Assembly: GCF_044324875.1 (NCBI RefSeq) | Contig: NZ_CP172185.1 | DNA length: 64,000 nt | From: Escherichia coli | GTDB lineage: Bacteria; Pseudomonadota; Gammaproteobacteria; Enterobacterales; Enterobacteriaceae | Strand: one strand, 5' to 3' | Shown here: positions 10,586 through 19,613 of the stretch, piece after piece | How positions within the stretch are numbered: the first letter of the stretch is position 1 | How the letters are laid out: the number at the start of each line of letters is the position of its first letter | The notes under the pieces: model-generated | The model's database searches: none | Told to the model about the DNA's origin: nothing | Seen by the model: only the letters and a program-made list of their open reading frames with translations | Translations under genes and position numbers: made by a program

Positions 10586-11230
10586 TCAGCCGGTGCGCAG
10601 ACCGGCTTCGGTGAAGGTGTATTCGTTGATGAGAAGGGCCTCATCCACAGGGGCATCTGAGGTCAGCCTGTTGTGCTCGTTTTCCAGTTGACGGTACAGC
10701 CAGAAGGCCAGGTCGCGCAGGGCTTCGCTGACAGCGGCTTCCGCATCTGTTGTCATAGTCTGACCAGTCGGACTGTTCCGGGTAACAGTGATATCCATGC
10801 TGTACGGATGGCAGTAGCGTCCCCGGCGGTGGATTTCAGCCTGCAGTTGCCAGAAGTTACGCTTCTGCACCGCCTGCAGGGCATCCGCGATACGATGGAG
10901 TTCATGCTCCTGTGGGGCATACTTCCGGATTATCCGGGCTGTCGCCGGCTGCCAGTGCCAGCGTCCTTCAAAACAGGCTCCGTCCCCCTGGCTGCAGCAT
11001 CCGCTGAACCAGATGCACGGCTCTTCCATAAACCTGCCGTTGCTGAGCCGGAAAACGCGCTGGCGGAGGTCAATTCCGAAAATGTCACAGACCGCCCTGA
11101 AGTCCTCATACACGTTTTCATACCAGTTGCTGTCAGCATGATGCTGACGGTACCCGTCGCGGGCTTTTCCCCGTACCGGGCAGGAAAGTTCATCCAGCGT
11201 ATACACTGTGATGGTGATAATGCTGCTCAT
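10586..11230 (-). CDS. Hypothetical Cys/Trp-rich protein (214 aa) sitting between DUF987 and antitoxin genes
   Basis: ORF in operon orientation with RBS aaagggga before ATG; no family recognised; antisense ORF 10673-11410 regarded as shadow. Confidence 0.5.
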   Translation of the reverse strand: MSSIITITVYTLDELSCPVRGKARDGYRQHHADSNWYENVYEDFRAVCDIFGIDLRQRVFRLSNGRFMEEPCIWFSGCCSQGDGACFEGRWHWQPATARIIRKYAPQEHELHRIADALQAVQKRNFWQLQAEIHRRGRYCHPYSMDITVTRNSPTGQTMTTDAEAAVSEALRDLAFWLYRQLENEHNRLTSDAPVDEALLINEYTFTEAGLRTG

Positions 11231-11248
11231 CAGAATCCCCTTTCTGAT

Positions 11249-11470
11249 TCAGTTCAGGGTGACGCTCATCAGCCGGACATACGGGCCAAAACTGTCCTTA
11301 CGGCGTTCAGCAAACACGGCCAGCACACCGGGAATATCCTGTACTTCACGACCGGTATACGTCTCAGCACTGCCGTGCCAGCGGTACTTACCGGTGCAGA
11401 ACGGAAATAGACGGGATGCAGGATGCTGTTGGTGAATACGCATGGCTTCACCACGGGTGATAATTTTCAT
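11249..11470 (-). CDS. DUF987 protein (YeeT/YpjJ-like)
   Basis: 73 aa, position directly downstream of radC-like gene as in CP4-type islands. Confidence 0.6.
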   Translation of the reverse strand: MKIITRGEAMRIHQQHPASRLFPFCTGKYRWHGSAETYTGREVQDIPGVLAVFAERRKDSFGPYVRLMSVTLN

Positions 11471-11532
11471 AATGGGATACCTCTGAAGACAGAAGATAAA
11501 AGTGAAAACAGGTGTGATGTGGTTGTGACGGG

Positions 11533-12009
11533 TTAAAGCAGACCATGTTCGGCAAAGGAGAAAACCTGGCTGCCACCGACTATCAGATGGTCCGGCACCC
11601 GGATATCCACCAGGCCCAGTGCCTGTACCAGACGTTCCGTGATAAGGCGGTCTGCCTTGCTGGGTGTGACTTCACCGGACGGGTGATTGTGCGCCAGCAC
11701 CACGGCAGCGGCATTGTGGTACAGGGCGCGTTTAATCACTTCCCGGGGATGGACTTCCGTGCGGTTGATGGTGCCGGTGAAGAGGGTTTCACCGGCAATC
11801 AGCTGATTCTGGTTGTTCAGATACAGCACCCGGAATTCTTCACGCTCCAGTCCCGCCATGTTCAGAATCAGCCATTCCCGTGCCGCATGCGTGGAGGTGA
11901 AGGCCACGCCGGGTTCATGAAGATGGCGGTCCAGGGCTTTCAGGGCCCGCTGAATGAGGCTGCGCTCTCTGGTTGTCATTTCTCCGGGCAGAAAGGAAAT
12001 CTGTTGCAT
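11533..12009 (-). CDS. RadC-like JAB/JAMM-domain protein (YeeS/YfjY/YkfG-like)
   Basis: 158 aa with JAMM motif HNHPSG and upstream E; synteny with antirestriction gene. Confidence 0.8.
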   Translation of the reverse strand: MQQISFLPGEMTTRERSLIQRALKALDRHLHEPGVAFTSTHAAREWLILNMAGLEREEFRVLYLNNQNQLIAGETLFTGTINRTEVHPREVIKRALYHNAAAVVLAHNHPSGEVTPSKADRLITERLVQALGLVDIRVPDHLIVGGSQVFSFAEHGLL

Positions 12010-12024
12010 TGTTCCGGCCCCCTT

Positions 12025-12504
12025 TCAGTCAATGATGCGCATAATGGCGCTGCATTCCGGATGCTGCAGGGCGTAATCCCGCAGACGGTAATAATGAACC
12101 GTCATGGCATAACACTCCGTACGGCAGGCGTGATGACTGTACGTCATCAGACAGGCAGCAATGCCGGCGGCTTCCGGGCTCATTTCAGCGCGGTTACCGT
12201 TCATGGCATTGAACAGTACCCATGTTTCGTCATCATCATCATCCGGTTCGGGGGCCATAAATGCCCCGCCGTTGTTCAGGGTGTACAGATTCCAGATACC
12301 ACCGCAGTAGTCTTCGCACAGACGGTCCATCCAGCCGAAGACACTGGGCTCCAGGGTCACCCACTGTGGAATGAGGCCAAAATGCTGCGGCCAGAAGCTG
12401 ATGCGCTGTTCATCAGGGACGAGGCTGGCAACCAACTGAGGCGGATTATTCTCTGGTGTTGTAGCTGAATAAATTGTGGGGGTATTCTGAGAAACGGTTT
12501 TCAT
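12025..12504 (-). CDS. Antirestriction protein (ArdB/KlcA-like, YfjX/YeeR-position)
   Basis: 159 aa, acidic stretch DDDDDE; resembles remembered YfjX-family proteins. Confidence 0.6.
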   Translation of the reverse strand: MKTVSQNTPTIYSATTPENNPPQLVASLVPDEQRISFWPQHFGLIPQWVTLEPSVFGWMDRLCEDYCGGIWNLYTLNNGGAFMAPEPDDDDDETWVLFNAMNGNRAEMSPEAAGIAACLMTYSHHACRTECYAMTVHYYRLRDYALQHPECSAIMRIID

Positions 12505-12585
12505 GAGATAACGCCTTAAATAACAAATAAATGTGTGTTTTTCAGGAACGAAAGCTGAATGATTCCCTCACTCAGGGAAACGGCA

Positions 12586-13404
12586 TCAGCGCATGCTCTC
12601 CAGCAGCGTTTCTGCCATCACCCACAATGCGCGGTTGAGTTTTATATCGGTATCAATGCTGTGAATGGCCCGGGTATGGATACGTTTTCCTTTTGCACTG
12701 CGACCGGAAATCCCGCCTTTCAGCATATTCTCCTGGATGGTCTGATAAGCACTCCACAGGTCCTTACCGTAATCCTCCCGGCGTCGTGGTGTCAGAATGT
12801 CGGCGGTGGTGACGGGCTGATGTTCGTCACCATAACGGTAAGTCAGTGCCGCCTGTGCCAGCGCCTGGCGTGCCGGTGGCGGCAGGACCAGCGACTGCAT
12901 GGCATCACGCTTCTCCTCTATCCGGTCAAACACGCCCACCACCTCGTAAGCCCCTTCAATGACTCTGTCCACCACATTTCCCCGGTGCGGAACACGCACT
13001 TCCCCCCGAGACTGACCGCAGACGCATCCGTTCTGGCAGACGAACCTGAAGTAACCCGGCAGCATCTGGTAGCTGGAGGTACCGTCATGAGAGTTGAGCA
13101 GAATAATTTCAGGGACATGTTGTCCGTTTATCTCCCCGTCACGGCGCAGACGCAGCATGTGTTTGGTATACCCCCGGCGACCCGGGTCACGTACGCGGGT
13201 CTGGCAGGCGAAGAATGGCTGAAAGCCTTCCCGCTGCAGGCTTTCCAGCACGGTGATGGTGGGGATGTATGTATAGTTCCGGCTCCGGGAGGTGTGTTTA
13301 TCTTCCCCGAAAATCCCGGGCACATGGTGCATCAGCTCTTCACGGGTCAGCGGACGGTCACGGCGTATCTGGTTCGCATAACCAAAACGACTGGCTAATC
13401 GCAT
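12586..13404 (-). CDS. DUF932-family protein (YfjQ/YafZ-like)
   Basis: 272 aa; family assignment from memory of CP4-57 gene order and size. Confidence 0.55.
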   Translation of the reverse strand: MRLASRFGYANQIRRDRPLTREELMHHVPGIFGEDKHTSRSRNYTYIPTITVLESLQREGFQPFFACQTRVRDPGRRGYTKHMLRLRRDGEINGQHVPEIILLNSHDGTSSYQMLPGYFRFVCQNGCVCGQSRGEVRVPHRGNVVDRVIEGAYEVVGVFDRIEEKRDAMQSLVLPPPARQALAQAALTYRYGDEHQPVTTADILTPRRREDYGKDLWSAYQTIQENMLKGGISGRSAKGKRIHTRAIHSIDTDIKLNRALWVMAETLLESMR

Positions 13405-13448
13405 ACTTTGCTCCTTATCAGTGGTTAAGACTGAATGACGTAATCAAT

Positions 13449-14458: not shown

Positions 14459-15343
14459 TCAGAACAGGTGATCCCACAGAGTGACCAGCAGGTGGATAAT
14501 GCGGTCCCGGGTTTTGCGCAGAAGCTGTAACATCCAGGCCGGAAAACTGAAACGGGCAACGGCGTCGTCAAAACTTTTCCCGATGGTTTCACCAAAAGTC
14601 TGTTGTGCGTGTTTCTGGACCCGTTCAGAGCGGTTTTCCCCCCGGATATGTGAATAAACCGCGCTGGTTGCCTGTGGCGGCAGTGCGTGGATCATCAGTG
14701 ACACCAGTGCCGGAATATTCCAGCCGACAGGCGCGGCAACGGGGAGTACCGGAAATGATGAAGGGAACAGGGTTGCCACCCGGGCTGTCACCGTCGCCAG
14801 CGAGAGTTCCTGGTGACGGGACGGGCATTTTTCTGTGTCGTTCCATTCTTCAGCAGGAAATACGCGATCGGCATGGCTGAGAACAAACAGAAAACGCGAG
14901 GGATCTGCACCTTCATTCAGTAAAAACTGATGCATGGCGATGTCGGCAGCATACGCACGTTCATCAGCCCGCAGGATCCAGATAATCAGATCCAGTTCGG
15001 GCAGTAACTGACTGTAAAGTGCCCGGTATTCCTGATCATGCTGTGGTGTTTCGCCAGTGCCGGGCAGATCGACCAGCGTCATTCTTCGTTCACCGGGCTG
15101 AAAGGTAAGACGATGAGCCTGACGGGTGCAGCCGTTCAGCGGATGCGTGGCGCAGACACGGGACTGAAAAATGGCATTGCACAGGCTGCTTTTTCCGGCA
15201 CCGGATTTACCCATAATGCCAATCACGGGCTCGTAATGAATAACACTGTGGAGATGTTCAAGGATTTTCTGGCGAATTTCTTCAGGAAGAAACGTCAGAT
15301 ATGATTTCACTTGTGCGGAGAGGGAAGAATGGCTGAATGACAT
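14459..15343 (-). CDS. 50S ribosome-binding GTPase-family protein (YeeP/YfjP/YkfA-like)
   Basis: 294 aa with P-loop GIMGKSGAGKSSL and DxxG (DLPG); first gene of the minus-strand island block. Confidence 0.8.
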   Translation of the reverse strand: MSFSHSSLSAQVKSYLTFLPEEIRQKILEHLHSVIHYEPVIGIMGKSGAGKSSLCNAIFQSRVCATHPLNGCTRQAHRLTFQPGERRMTLVDLPGTGETPQHDQEYRALYSQLLPELDLIIWILRADERAYAADIAMHQFLLNEGADPSRFLFVLSHADRVFPAEEWNDTEKCPSRHQELSLATVTARVATLFPSSFPVLPVAAPVGWNIPALVSLMIHALPPQATSAVYSHIRGENRSERVQKHAQQTFGETIGKSFDDAVARFSFPAWMLQLLRKTRDRIIHLLVTLWDHLF

Positions 15344-15448
15344 ACCGGTATCCTGTTGATTTCACTGAACCGGATCACACTAATCCGGTTTATCATTCAG
15401 GTAATATGGGCGTGAAAAAATCTGGAGTGACAAAGTTCGGGAGGAGTG

Positions 15449-16399
15449 ATGGCATCACTGTCGATTAATACGCTACGCCGAATGAGCATTTGTAAAAGTC
15501 AGGCCTGGAAAGATACCCAGCGAATACTGAAGCGTAGTGGACTTGTGTACAGAGGGGAACGGTCAGAATCGTTTGATCCTGAGAAACATTTTAATCGTTA
15601 TACGGTGCGTTATCTGTACCTGCTTAACATAATTGCGCTTAAGATAAGGTCGGTTAGTAAATTTTCCTGTTGGATCGAGGTGGGACAATGCCATCGTATG
15701 ACTGGTAAACATTTATCTCTTAATGCCCCGCCTTTTATGCTGATTCCGCGTAGTATCCGGAGAAAAGTGGATGGATTCAGACAGTCAAAAGGTGAAGCAA
15801 CCCCAAAATCGGCTCAACCGTTCACGGGCAGTTTGTATGAGGTTTTGAGAAAGGAGAGCGATTCAGCTAAGCTGGACGCATGGATTGCTGAACTGCCTCT
15901 GAACTTGCAGGAGGAGGGAAAGGAAATCTCAGTCATGGGATTTAGTCCACGGGCTGTGGCCCGACCTGTTCTTCGGTCAGCATCCCCGACGTTTGAACTG
16001 TTTTATCAGGAGTATCAATCCCTAAGATTAAAATCTGTTTTTAAATTTGAACCAAGATTTGAACAACTTTTAACAAGACTGAGCTTTAGAAAACAATCAA
16101 TTCTCAGAAAACAACAATACAGGGTTAAATCGCAATTACTGGAGAGACTGGGGAATGTGTTGTTTTTCACGTCGCTTTATAACCAGGGATGTTTAGAGGA
16201 GTTTATAAATGCACTTGTGGAAAAGGAGGACATTTATCTGAAAATGTCCCCTGGGGAGGAAAAGGTGAAAGCACACCAGAAAATGGTTAACTACATTGAA
16301 GCGTTCTGCAACAAAATGACGGAAAAATACCTGATGCCCGCAGCAAGCAGACACTACAAAAAGAAGAAAATCGCCAGGAGCGAAAGTGGTGAAAGTTAA
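15449..16399 (+). CDS. Hypothetical basic protein (about 316 aa), unknown family
   Basis: ORF divergent from GTPase gene; RBS gggagg before ATG 15449; lower-GC codon usage than core genes. Confidence 0.5.
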   Translation: MASLSINTLRRMSICKSQAWKDTQRILKRSGLVYRGERSESFDPEKHFNRYTVRYLYLLNIIALKIRSVSKFSCWIEVGQCHRMTGKHLSLNAPPFMLIPRSIRRKVDGFRQSKGEATPKSAQPFTGSLYEVLRKESDSAKLDAWIAELPLNLQEEGKEISVMGFSPRAVARPVLRSASPTFELFYQEYQSLRLKSVFKFEPRFEQLLTRLSFRKQSILRKQQYRVKSQLLERLGNVLFFTSLYNQGCLEEFINALVEKEDIYLKMSPGEEKVKAHQKMVNYIEAFCNKMTEKYLMPAASRHYKKKKIARSESGES

Positions 16400-17184
16400 T
16401 CCAGTCTACCGTACAGAATCAGTTGTTCCAGAATAGCCTGCTGTGTTGTTTTCCGCTCTCTGGTCAGTCTGTCCAGAGCGCTTTTTGCGGATGGCGATAT
16501 CTTTACGTTGATTTGTACCCGTTTATCTTTTTTTCCATCGATAAACTGTTTTCTGAATGCATTGTGCATCTTGTCGAAAAATCTTTCTTTTGCAGCGAAT
16601 CCTAGGTGAAATTCTTTTGGCGTCAGTAAACAGGGTGTGTCTGTGGGGAATAACATTTTTAGTAAAACTACAATGGCAATATATCTTTCGTTATCATTTA
16701 CAGGATTAAACCAGGAAAGATATGTGGGTGAGATACGTGCATCAATATATTCCCATGCCCATTTCAGTTGTTCGGTATTCTTTTTAAGCCATTTGGCTTC
16801 GTTTCTCTTTTCGAGTCCCAGCCAGTTTTGATGCATTATTGAGATAATCCGATCTGCTTCCCCATAAAGGATTAACGCATTAATCCATTTCCCTATAACA
16901 TTCAGTCGTGTTTCATGACTTGAAGGAATAATTGTCATGGGGTTATCCTTCATAACGATCACCCCCTTCAAGGCAGAGTTGAACTCAGATTCATTATTAA
17001 GTTTAAGTTTTTCGGGAACTGTATGAGACATAATTAACCAGAACCAGAATGCTGCAATTTCATTTTTTCTGATCCATTCAGGTATGTGATTATCTGCCAG
17101 ATTATTATCATTCAATAAATGCTCAGTTGTTTTATTTTTCCAGTCATATCTATTCACGTTATAACCGCCTTTATATTGTTTCAT
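16396..17184 (-). CDS. Hypothetical protein with C-terminal ribbon-helix-helix-like segment (about 262 aa)
   Basis: Start taken at MKQYKGGYN (RBS gaggcg upstream); C-terminus VQINVKISPSAKSALDRLTRERKTTQQAILEQLILYG looks like beta-strand plus two helices of RHH/CopG type; 3' end overlaps the convergent gene by 4 nt. Confidence 0.5.
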   Translation of the reverse strand: MKQYKGGYNVNRYDWKNKTTEHLLNDNNLADNHIPEWIRKNEIAAFWFWLIMSHTVPEKLKLNNESEFNSALKGVIVMKDNPMTIIPSSHETRLNVIGKWINALILYGEADRIISIMHQNWLGLEKRNEAKWLKKNTEQLKWAWEYIDARISPTYLSWFNPVNDNERYIAIVVLLKMLFPTDTPCLLTPKEFHLGFAAKERFFDKMHNAFRKQFIDGKKDKRVQINVKISPSAKSALDRLTRERKTTQQAILEQLILYGRLD

Positions 17185-17299
17185 CTGATTACGCCTCAAT
17201 CGTTTTCTTTTCTGGTGATTTTCACCATCACATGTCAGTTGTATATGCAAGGGGATCAATAAAAATATCACCCTGCAAGCACTTCAAAGCTGATTATGG

Positions 17300-18880
17300 G
17301 GATATTCTAGAACTATTCACAAAACTATTCCAGACATATCAAGAACTATTTCTTGACCTATTCATAATAAAATAAAACATGCTATCAACTACGGCTCATA
17401 TTCTCCTTGGGGGTGTCGTTGTACTGTTCGACTGTTCTTGTGGTCAGATTAACAATCTGAAGAGTAAAAGCGACAGTAATCTGTCTGTTATAGTGGCGAT
17501 AAAAACACTGAATGCGCATCCTGTATGTGAAATCCTGTCATGTAGAGCAGTAAGCAATGACAGACATGCATGTTATATGTGAAGGGGGCCGGGAGACGAC
17601 ATAATCAGTATGGCTGTCATTCTGGTTGTAAAACGCGATCACTTTCCGGGGGTAAAAGATGATATGGAGGTTGACAAACGGTTTGCTTCGGATTGTCTTT
17701 TCTGGGGCCTGAAATACGAGGGCAGAAAAATAATTCCAGAGTAAATCTGCTCTGTTTTTAGGACAGAAAACTCCATGCTGGCTGTAAAAGTGAAAAATTA
17801 ACACCCAGTATGTATGGAAGTCTGAAGATGTTGAGAATGTCGGTATGATACTATATACACATATTTTACTAAGTATTTTTACTAAGCATTTCAGTAAGTG
17901 TTATACACGTATTTTCTACTAAGTGTTTTACCAGACATACACGTGTTTTCATAAACAGCCCTATAAGTGTTTTCATTAAGCATTGCTGTACACATTGCTT
18001 TGTCTGAAACACATCCAGTTTAGTAAATCTTTACGTTAGCTAAAATCAGTTTAAAGCTGCTGTAAAACCTTTCTGTTTAAGCAATCAATCTGCTATTCGA
18101 TTTTACTGATGTTGCGTTTAACCTTTTCTGAGATTTCGAGTTTCGACGTTAGCATGAGAAAAGTATCTTTACGCTAAATCAACCCGAACTTTCCTGAAGT
18201 AATCTGACGTTTTTTTCGATGTGCTTACGACGATTCTGTTAAACGACTTTCTGGATGTTTTGATAACAATCAGATTGAGGCATTAACGATTCCTGACGTT
18301 TTCTTTTCCGTGTAAGGTCATTCTTTTTGTCATGAGGTTTCTTCTTGCATTGCGAAAGTGTGATGAACGGTTTTGGTGTTTTTGATTCAGATAAGGTTTA
18401 CGTTATCGATGGTTAATCGTTTTTATGGTGCGTAGTGAAACGTAACTTTTTCAGGATGAGAAAATCGATTCTGATGTTGGTGATTTTTGTTCTTGTGGCG
18501 GGGTTTATCTGTAAACAGGTTTTAAACGTGTCATTCACATCCGTGATTGAGTTGTGTGATTAAGCTGTAGGTTTTGGGGTTGTTGTTGATTTGCATTACC
18601 AGGAAGCGTTCTGGTTGCGTTTCTGGTGTTTTGTTCGAATGTTCTGTGGATCCTTTTCCCTTCTGACTTTTCTCGTTGTCCATGTCGTTTTTAAATCCAT
18701 TCGCTGTTCTTGAGTGTTTTTACCCTGCGTGTAGAATTATCTTTTCGTTCCGGGATGGTTTGTTCCGTTTCAATCACTCTTAATCAGAGAGTTGTAGCAT
18801 TGCTCAATGCCGGATGCCGTAAAGTTTTACCGCGGTGATTAATGATGTGAAGTCAATCCAAATCAACGGAGATCTCTCAT
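17300..18880. other. 1.6-kb AT-rich, ORF-poor region with short direct repeats upstream of the Gp2-family genes
   Basis: Repeated motifs tactaagt(a/g)tttt and acacgt(g/a)ttttc around 17870-17950; only short ORFs; strongly T-skewed plus strand. Confidence 0.5.
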
Positions 18881-18881
18881 C

Positions 18882-19613
18882 ATGAATCAACCAATACATA
18901 ATGCTTACTGGTTATCCCGTTTTGACAGCCTTCTCGACAGTGCCCTGGCGCAGCACCGTGCCGTCTCGTTAATCCGGGTGGATTTACGTTTCCCTGAGTA
19001 TATGCCTGTCACCATCATGGATCCCGATCCGGATTCAGCGGTGATTTCTCGTTTTTTTGCATCCCTGAAAGCCAAAATTCAGGCTTACCAGCGGAAAAAA
19101 AGATGTGCCAATCAGCGTGTGCATGCAACCAGCCTGCGTTATTTCTGGTGCCGGGAGTTCGGCAAGGAAAAAGGCAGGAAACATTATCACGTGATATTAC
19201 TGCTCAACAAAGATACCTGGTGCTCGCCAGGGGATTTCACCGTTCCTTCTTCGCTGGCGACACTGATCAAGCTGGCATGGTGTAGCGCTCTGCATCTTGA
19301 GCCCTGGCAGGGTAATGGACTGGTTCATTTTTCCAGGCGGACGCCTTTCCGTAAACCGGCATCATCTGATGCTCGCCCTTCTTCCGATGATACGCCTTTG
19401 TCGGGTGGATGTTCTGATACCAGGAAGGCTTCAGAAAAAAAGCCGGGTGAAGCCGCTGTTCTCTGGATCAAGCGTGGTGATGTGGAAGCGCTGCAGAAAG
19501 CCCGGAACAGAGCCAGTTATCTCGTGAAATATGAGACGAAGCAGCATGACGGTTCCGGGCAACGTAATTATGGTTGCAGTCGTGGGCCGGGGCGTCTGCT
19601 GGATGGCAGGTGA
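18882..19613 (+). CDS. Inovirus Gp2-family protein (YfjJ/YagK-like)
   Basis: 243 aa, contains RVDLRFPEYMP and HYHVILLLN motifs typical of the YagK/YfjJ family. Confidence 0.75.
   Translation: MNQPIHNAYWLSRFDSLLDSALAQHRAVSLIRVDLRFPEYMPVTIMDPDPDSAVISRFFASLKAKIQAYQRKKRCANQRVHATSLRYFWCREFGKEKGRKHYHVILLLNKDTWCSPGDFTVPSSLATLIKLAWCSALHLEPWQGNGLVHFSRRTPFRKPASSDARPSSDDTPLSGGCSDTRKASEKKPGEAAVLWIKRGDVEALQKARNRASYLVKYETKQHDGSGQRNYGCSRGPGRLLDGR

Follow-up and report, generated by a model that had tools for sequence, protein, structure and literature searches.

The 64,000-nt stretch of Escherichia coli DNA analyzed here (contig NZ_CP172185.1 of RefSeq assembly GCF_044324875.1; hereafter, the window) carries a genomic island in which two genes annotated as hypothetical, here called A and B, lie between a gene for a YeeP/YfjP-family GTPase and a gene of the Gp2 family (Table 1). 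The two genes are transcribed toward each other at the hub that separates the island's two divergently transcribed arms. An initial annotation of this DNA had described them as a convergent pair of low GC content overlapping by 4 nt at the 3' ends, and both the open reading frames (ORFs) and the base composition confirm that description; for comparison, the GC content is 0.53 in the GTPase gene and 0.52 in the Gp2-family gene. The overlap is real, because the TAA stops of A and B share a palindromic TTAA (16396-16399). The computed isoelectric point (pI) of A agrees with its earlier description as a basic protein of 316 aa, and B is basic as well. A GTG located 3 bases upstream of the ATG of A offers an alternative start that would give 317 aa. 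For B, a 291-aa version from an upstream GTG is not supported by the N-termini of homologues.

Table 1. Features of the A/B locus and its surroundings. Positions are those of the window; accessions are from RefSeq and its Prokaryotic Genome Annotation Pipeline (PGAP).
Feature	Position	Strand	Remarks
Gene A	15449-16399	+	316 aa from ATG; pI 9.9; GC 0.43; WP_000157733.1 (RefSeq/PGAP), hypothetical
Gene B	16396-17184	-	262 aa from ATG; pI 9.5; GC 0.37; WP_000816188.1 (RefSeq/PGAP), hypothetical
B tail, residues 216-262	16399-16539	-	KRVQINVKIS-PSAKSALDRLTRERKTTQQAILEQLIL; likely CopB/CopG/Arc-like ribbon-helix-helix (RHH)
B residues 1-90	16915-17184	-	Hypervariable
Replaceable cassette	~15419-17722		~2.3 kb; GC 0.41; blastn breakpoints versus L014, L015 and L016
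Backbone control region	15333-15418		From GTPase start codon (15343, -) to cassette
Predicted B promoter	17293-17322	-	Sigma-70-like; -35 TTGTGA 17322-17317, -10 CATAAT 17298-17293; 9/12 consensus
Four direct RAMCTATTY copies	17310-17363	+	GAATAG on B strand; two pairs, 12-nt spacing; overlap B -35
Two terminator-like hairpins	16334-16383	-	Inside A 3' end, directly downstream of B stop; pattern scan only; candidate B terminators
67-codon ORF	17379-17582	+	Divergent from B; hydrophobic N-terminus; candidate coding
Bidirectional terminator-like hairpin	17737-17754		CAGAGTAAATCTGCTCTG + T run; cassette right edge
13-nt periodic array	17864-17929 (looser copies 17850-17990)		TTTTACTAAGTAT; 5.2 copies; T-tracts in phase
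GTPase gene	14459-15343	-	YeeP/YfjP family
Gp2-family gene	18882-19613	+	Gp2/REP_ORF2-G2P; AlpA-like gene to its right, +
ALIL pseudoknot	27070-27186	+	Rfam, 116 bits; frameshift element of IS3-family transposases

A and B are genuine coding genes, because full-length homologues of both keep the reading frame down to about 20% identity and because the ratio of nonsynonymous to synonymous substitution rates (dN/dS) lies below 1. In allele comparisons, dN/dS is about 0.4 to 0.6 for A, 0.12 to 0.28 for the tail of B, and 0.2 to 0.34 for its middle. The sole segment of B near neutrality is residues 1 to 90, with a value of about 1.1 between moderately diverged alleles. Conceivably, the pair could be decaying leftovers of a degraded island with no current function. 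The surrounding island is indeed degraded, with DUF4942, ProQ/FinO, and several insertion sequence (IS) genes frameshifted, the region is AT-rich, and the dN/dS of A is fairly high. However, hundreds of genomes carry intact frames, which remain full length even in the most distant homologues, most segments have a dN/dS well below 1, and the arrangement is conserved across Enterobacterales. We therefore consider decay extremely unlikely.

The pair is widespread within one type of island. Of 5426 complete E. coli genomes, about 1870 contain islands of this type, with as many as six copies in a genome; the GTPase gene was located at 2502 places and the Gp2 gene at 2507. Window-like A/B pairs occupy about 810 places in 742 complete genomes, which, along with distant relatives in other Enterobacterales, answers the earlier proposal to check for co-occurrence of the two genes beyond this strain. 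Members of the B family occur in Serratia, Salmonella, Klebsiella, and Citrobacter, and the pairing of A with B is kept to about 20% identity across Enterobacterales. The layout itself, with the GTPase gene on the minus strand, A on the plus strand, B on the minus strand, and the AlpA and Gp2 genes on the plus strand, recurs among E. coli alleles and persists in relatives of 17 to 40% identity. The convergent arrangement was seen in all 18 paired metagenome loci. Most loci also keep the 4-nt overlap, the exceptions being L011 (26-nt overlap), L010 (121-nt gap), and L014 (56-nt gap). Outside the island, the pair is rare: it was present in 2 of 72,556 plasmids, both times on island fragments, in 1 of 2.9 million viral contigs, and in none of the phage records. 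One plasmid copy (L012) is on pNDM5_LS003 (NZ_OP290546.1), an IncI-gamma/K1 NDM-5 plasmid, where positions 5396-13417 hold DUF6685, A, B, Gp2 ... YfjI, and Gp2, adjoining repA. Such a fragment shows that transfer of the hub region to a conjugative plasmid is possible.

Our results reveal that A and B occupy a discrete and replaceable unit. Comparison of the window with three other cassette types showed that the backbone, about 93% identical, stops matching at 15413-15418 and matches again from about 17723. These sharp breakpoints, in islands with other content at this place, define the cassette listed in Table 1 and bear out the earlier idea of a replaceable segment inside a conserved backbone. 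To characterize the slot, metagenome contigs were scanned for a backbone motif, a procedure blind to slot content that yielded 55 loci with enough sequence. Eighteen of these held A with B. Solo A-like genes were found in most of the others, encoding 376 aa (19 loci) or 407 aa (13 loci), and one locus had an A gene cut by an IS. Three loci held a solo B-like gene of 338 aa on the minus strand, and a last one had a 407-type gene cut by an insertion. Accordingly, an A-family gene occurred without B in 33 islands and a B-like gene without A in 3. In total, 54 of the 55 slots held an A-family gene, a B-family gene, or both, with the remaining one being the A-like gene cut by an insertion, and unrelated cargo in sister islands sits beyond Gp2/AlpA, outside the interval from the GTPase gene to the Gp2 gene. 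The view of this interval as an open cargo slot is thus contradicted. Another scan of genome contigs, based on the A alignment, returned a single locus; its pattern was narrow and confirmation was by the first sequence only.

These observations bear on the suggestion, made in the initial annotation, that the pair could be an anti-phage or toxin/regulator module. In its fullest form, this explanation holds that the genes provide defence against phages or plasmids, or abortive infection, with A as the effector, B as a DNA-binding sensor or regulator, and an arms race driving the alleles apart. It would be in keeping with a replaceable low-GC cassette between conserved flanks, with the dN/dS values of A and of the first 90 residues of B, and with TIR and dynamin-like genes nearby in sister islands. 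It also draws on CP4-57, where AbpAB and RnlAB are encoded in a roughly corresponding interval. Here the analogy stands in part. In K-12, CP4-57 carries abpBA, yfjM, and rnlAB between yfjJ and yfjP, that is, proven defence genes between Gp2-type and GTPase genes. Yet, the analogy is only approximate, because the Gp2 and GTPase genes of K-12 CP4-57 are codirectional rather than divergent and no relative of A or B is present there; CP4-57 is not collinear with the A/B island. A similar comparison can be made with the defence hotspots of P2 and P4 (PMC9122126), which share with the A/B slot a variable, low-GC, sharply bounded segment in a conserved mobile backbone. Those hotspots, however, hold unrelated systems, whereas the A/B slot holds the same families almost without exception.

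Other evidence weighs against defence more directly. A search of PADLOC-DB v2 gave no credible match for 16 proteins (A and B of the window, 10 divergent members, and 4 proteins of alternative cassettes), the only match being a stray Cas11 at E 0.026, although this version dates from 2023 and newer or unknown systems are outside its reach. No enzymatic or effector domain was detectable in A, B, or the solo families. The alternative contents of the slot are related to one another, the genes are convergent rather than forming one operon, solo forms exist, and both proteins are basic. Furthermore, known defence systems move among many elements, whereas this pair stays within one island family and is nearly absent from plasmids, phages, and viral contigs. 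Nothing specific therefore speaks for the module that was suggested. At the same time, neither protein was assigned to a known non-defence family and the two genes do co-occur in other genomes, so the defence idea is weakened only. We consider it unlikely, but worth keeping in view.

For the C-terminus of B, a resemblance to an RHH domain had been proposed. This resemblance is upheld by matches that are weak and below threshold, yet consistent across members of the family. The NCBIfam model NF010256 (CopB/RepA2) matches the tail in 7 of 11 B-family members with E values of 2e-4 to 0.06. The scores of 13 to 21 bits compare with a curated cutoff of 87, and only model positions ~27 to 78 are covered in a family whose protein has about 85 aa, so that the relationship is one of domain-level resemblance and not membership. 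Additional NCBIfam matches below threshold were to IncL/M RepC and a CopG-like "LexA regulated protein," and Arc-like and CopG-like repressors of PHROGs matched the tail at E values of 2e-3 to 0.6. With Pfam, the tail of the window's B gave RHH_1 at E 0.14 and RepB-RCR_reg at E 0.32; among 19 members, the best E values were 1.1e-3 and 8.9e-3, respectively, and each model matched 5 of the 19 at E <= 0.1. An AlphaFold2 (AF2) model of B is all-helical, with a mean predicted local distance difference test score (pLDDT) of 65, and consists of an N-terminal domain of about 215 residues followed by the RHH-like tail. In the tail, helices at residues 231-244 and 248-257 follow the segment RVQINVKIS, with a local pLDDT of 51 to 80, and the alignment shows that the usual Gly in the turn between helices is replaced. 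The tail is also the most constrained segment of B and is nearly invariant among E. coli alleles of the window's clade. Together, these features suggest that B likely has an RHH DNA-binding tail. For the N-terminal domain, there was no informative structural match. The solo 338-aa B-like proteins (L045, L079, and L086) align with the full B profile, including the tail; at these three loci, the conserved backbone promoter region would read antisense into the 3' end of the B-like gene.

Gene A belongs to no family that we could name, in agreement with the earlier description. Searches of Pfam, NCBIfam, PHROGs, and PADLOC with A and 20 divergent relatives gave zero matches. Only 48 matches, ~17 of them full-length distant relatives, emerged when 1.84 billion representative proteins were searched in depth with a profile, and this small number identifies A as a small orphan family. 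Its conserved core consists of the N-terminal ~140 residues, with the motifs S.AW.NTQ..LKRSG, I.P..IRRK.D.F.Q, and GSLY, and the C-terminal half is more variable. An AF2 model built from a 16-sequence alignment had a mean pLDDT of 46, which makes it unusable for inference of a fold, and a Foldseek search of AFDB with this model returned only the uncharacterized family of A itself. Sequence searches of the PDB with profiles of A and B gave nothing meaningful. The possibility that A and B are paralogues was ruled out (hhalign probability, 0.3%). In the searchable literature, queried by accession, by island genes, and for defence hotspots and satellites, we found no paper in which A and B appear beyond the label "hypothetical."

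More can be learned from the solo A-like proteins of sister islands, such as those of L028 (376 aa) and of L035 and L015 (407 aa), which fill the slot in about 60% of the sampled islands. N-terminal to the A core, these proteins carry a zinc-finger-like motif, C-x4-C-x15-C-x2-H. They have no match in Pfam, NCBIfam, or PADLOC. The fusion of a solo A core to a Cys/His module suggests that the core needs a nucleic-acid-binding module, which in the paired cassettes may be provided by B.

The alleles of the cassette are diverse and partly reassorted. Among 27 paired loci, there were 9 classes of A and 7 classes of B, which fall into two deep clades that co-diverge: A classes 2, 3, and 8 occur with B classes 2, 5, and 7, and A classes 1, 4, 5, 6, 7, and 9 occur with B classes 1, 3, 4, and 6. 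Within the clades, A1 is found with B1 or B4, and B3 with A6, A7, or A9. In addition, L006 and the window have A proteins that are 89 to 100% identical, depending on the segment, and B proteins that are only 26% identical over the first 90 residues. Strict lock-and-key covariation between the C-terminal half of A and the N-terminus of B is ruled out by L006 and by the reassortment within clades. A probe used to look for repeated alleles within a genome also matched the class of alleles at 80 to 90% identity and gave a single place, the best one, for each genome.

With these data, it is possible to weigh whether the pair is a type II toxin-antitoxin (TA) system, with B in the role of an antitoxin that has its RHH domain at the C-terminus and A in that of an unrecognized toxin. 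Tight linkage on a mobile element and the co-divergence of two deep clades are what such a system might display, and the island already bears one TA pair, CbtA/CbeA. Moreover, the RHH-like tail of B follows a larger N-terminal domain, the order also found in HicB-type antitoxins, in which a neutralizing domain precedes a C-terminal RHH or HTH. The similarity ends there. Neither protein is homologous to HicB or HicA or matches any toxin family, both are basic, and the genes are convergent rather than cotranscribed. The presumed toxin, a protein of 316 aa, occurs without B in most islands, a B-like gene is found without A in a few, the same A allele pairs with the strongly divergent B N-termini of L006 and the window, and the pair is almost never on plasmids. 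A TA system is thus very unlikely.

The noncoding parts of the cassette and its flanks contain candidate control elements. On the left, the backbone control region contains a nested inverted repeat, CTGAATGACATACCGG / CCGGTTTATCATTCAG, enclosing CCGGAT-N7-ATCCGG, and ends with the motif GGTAATATGGGCGTGAAAA (15400-15418), in which there is a -10-like TAATAT. The region is conserved in E. coli alleles; in the distant loci L007 and L010, it is conserved in part, both loci retaining the motif and a hairpin in the same place. A sigma-70 consensus scan found no promoter in 15333-15418. This region is probably a shared control element and would carry the promoter of A together with a promoter or leader of the GTPase operon. 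On the right, upstream of B, the same kind of scan predicted a single promoter (Table 1). Direct repeats of GAATAG on the B strand overlap it: of 7 matches to RAMCTATTY in the window, 4 lie within 54 bp upstream of B, counts that are descriptive only, since the pattern was built from the very copies that are counted. Three other alleles with the window-type tail (L006, L012, and L013) have GAATAG repeats in the same place with an exact 11-nt spacing. As a result, the repeats accompany this type of tail in all four alleles that have it and are missing from five alleles with other tails. This distribution is suggestive of an allele-specific operator of B, for which the repeats are the candidate.

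A second set of repeats tells a different story. The 13-nt array is located in a noncoding, AT-rich part of the backbone (17723-18881; ~1.15 kb; GC 0.37) upstream of the Gp2-family gene and is conserved whatever the type of cassette. It was ruled out as an operator of B, since it belongs to the backbone and is the same in islands with a different B tail or without B. Instead, it could serve a backbone protein, for example, a Gp2-type initiator, in the form of iterons, an origin, or bent DNA. This array also enters into another explanation for the pair, namely, that B is a CopB/CopG-like controller of copy number for a Gp2-type rolling-circle initiator, or a relaxosome-type RHH protein working at an origin within this noncoding stretch, with A as a cofactor in replication or transfer. 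The best matches of the tail are regulators of plasmid replication (CopB/RepA2, IncL/M RepC, and RepB-RCR_reg), and in many family members the last ~45 residues of B align with the DNA-binding part of such models; in sequence, the tail follows their pattern of a putative strand with alternating residues, a first helix, a turn capped by T/S, and another helix. The Gp2/REP_ORF2-G2P gene, which diverges from B at a distance of 1.7 kb, accompanies the pair on pNDM5_LS003 and is separated from B by the conserved AT-rich stretch with its array. However, the array and the region upstream of Gp2 are the same in L014, which has a very different B tail, and in L015, L016, and other islands without any B, so they are unlikely to be sites specific for B. 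The scores of the tail are far below the cutoff of 87 bits, and A matches no Rep or relaxase family. Members of the CopB/CopG group are also stand-alone repressors of 45 to 90 aa, while B has an extra helical N-terminal domain of about 215 residues; no structure of a rep operon is shared, and the candidate operator of B is at its own promoter and not at the Gp2 gene. On balance, we regard an accessory role in replication or transfer as quite unlikely.

Our tentative preference, which we hold with somewhat less than even confidence, is for A and B as an allele-diverse control module that is owned by the island and resembles a phage immunity region. The cassette sits at the hub of the island, with the operon for GTPase, antirestriction, RadC, and CbtA-CbeA on one side and the genes for the Gp2-type Rep protein and AlpA on the other. 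B would be a DNA-binding repressor whose RHH tail dimerizes and binds the phased GAATAG repeats over its own promoter, and its fast-evolving helical N-terminal domain may serve in oligomerization, partner binding, or the sensing of a signal. A would be transcribed from the conserved backbone promoter toward B and might act with or against B. Diverged alleles between identical flanks would then confer regulatory specificity on each lineage.

Several observations are consistent with such a control module. These include the RHH-like tail, repeats close to the promoter, the hub position, the constrained slot, the Cys/His fusion of the solo A-like proteins, the basic charge of both proteins, and confinement to one island family. 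Also in its favour, the cassette starts directly after the -10-like motif and ends at a terminator-like hairpin. The presence of A or B families in 54 of 55 slots fits a function that the island requires, with diversified specificity. DNA binding, the operator, the promoter of A, the interaction of A with B, and the regulatory target are all steps that we infer from such patterns.

Nevertheless, an argument can be made against this interpretation. All of the RHH matches fall on the same residues of B and none reaches a family threshold, a sequence search of the PDB with a profile of the B tail recovered no RHH chain, and the β-strand expected of the tail is not formed in the AF2 monomer model. 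For A, no DNA-binding or regulatory domain is detectable, and its structural model is unusable. The assignment of the operator involves nine alleles, AT-rich DNA, and a pattern derived from the repeats themselves. Reassortment of A with different B N-termini weakens the case for a specific interaction of the two proteins, though the two deep clades do co-diverge. Finally, hypervariability and low GC content fit a function in conflict, such as defence, equally well. Alternatively, A, B, and their solo relatives could form a diversifying sensor-effector system, with specificity given by the A core and the N-terminal domain of B. This system would be either a new form of immunity to phages or plasmids that is confined to the island family, or a master switch of excision and replication that senses a helper. 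We assign this more ambitious proposal a low probability.

Among known systems, the control module that we favour is closest in its workings to lambdoid immunity regions and to Stl of Staphylococcus aureus pathogenicity islands and other phage-inducible chromosomal islands (SaPI/PICI). In each case, a diverged cassette made of a repressor gene and its own operators, both of them putative for A/B, lies between conserved flanks at the junction of divergent units. Other shared traits are many heterotypic alleles, several elements per genome, and a DNA-binding part that is conserved next to a domain that evolves fast. There is no relationship in sequence or fold, in that the repressors of those systems use a helix-turn-helix (HTH) while the tail of B is RHH-like. 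Partner A is convergent rather than divergent, and the A/B cassette is known from its genes alone. Likewise, the island is not a recognized phage satellite, given the single match among viral contigs.

RHH regulators and variable control cassettes are already known. The new elements are a pair of orphan families and, at the island hub, a cassette with many alleles. Islands of this type are found in about a third of E. coli genomes and often bear genes for virulence or fitness. Should the cassette prove to be a control switch, this would account for the coexistence of several related islands in the same cell; should it prove to be a defence module, bacterial immunity would gain two new protein families. 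Either way, our analysis offers a first functional frame for two widespread "hypothetical" families, along with a cheap entry point for experiments.

Some features of the locus are of less certain significance. The 67-codon ORF between B and the right edge of the cassette is a called gene in L006, is intact in close cassettes, and is broken in cassettes that are 78% identical. Its RNA is predicted to fold in no exceptional way (z = -1.4), and the ORF may correspond to a small protein, to a small RNA, or to nothing. The terminator-like hairpin at the right edge of the cassette adjoins this boundary in other cassette types as well. A further version of the A/B pair, very divergent, is that of L014.

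Beyond the hub, the left arm of the island continues from the GTPase gene with DUF905, DUF932, antirestriction, RadC/JAB, DUF987, CbeA/CbtA, DUF957, and DUF4942 genes, all on the minus strand. In sister islands, the cargo beyond Gp2 includes a TIR-domain protein, an HTH plus dynamin-like protein, a TonB-dependent receptor, and an acyltransferase with pseudouridine kinase and glycosidase genes (L014, 12766-13470; L002, 10987-12957; L003, 11209-12957; L015, 11914-14765). The island in the window carries aerobactin and an adhesin. In the identical RefSeq locus (L001), the pseudogenes are DUF4942 (frameshifted), DUF5983 (partial), ProQ/FinO (frameshifted), and IS1, at window positions 8412-9197 and about 21600-23200. 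There is no intact integrase and no tRNA gene in the window. Owing to these absences and to the pseudogenes, this copy of the island is probably immobile; A and B are intact nonetheless. A chance match to the Rfam family PhotoRC-I inside the Gp2 gene (24 bits versus 45) was rejected. The strong match to the ALIL pseudoknot fits with an IS-rich and degraded island to the right of A and B.

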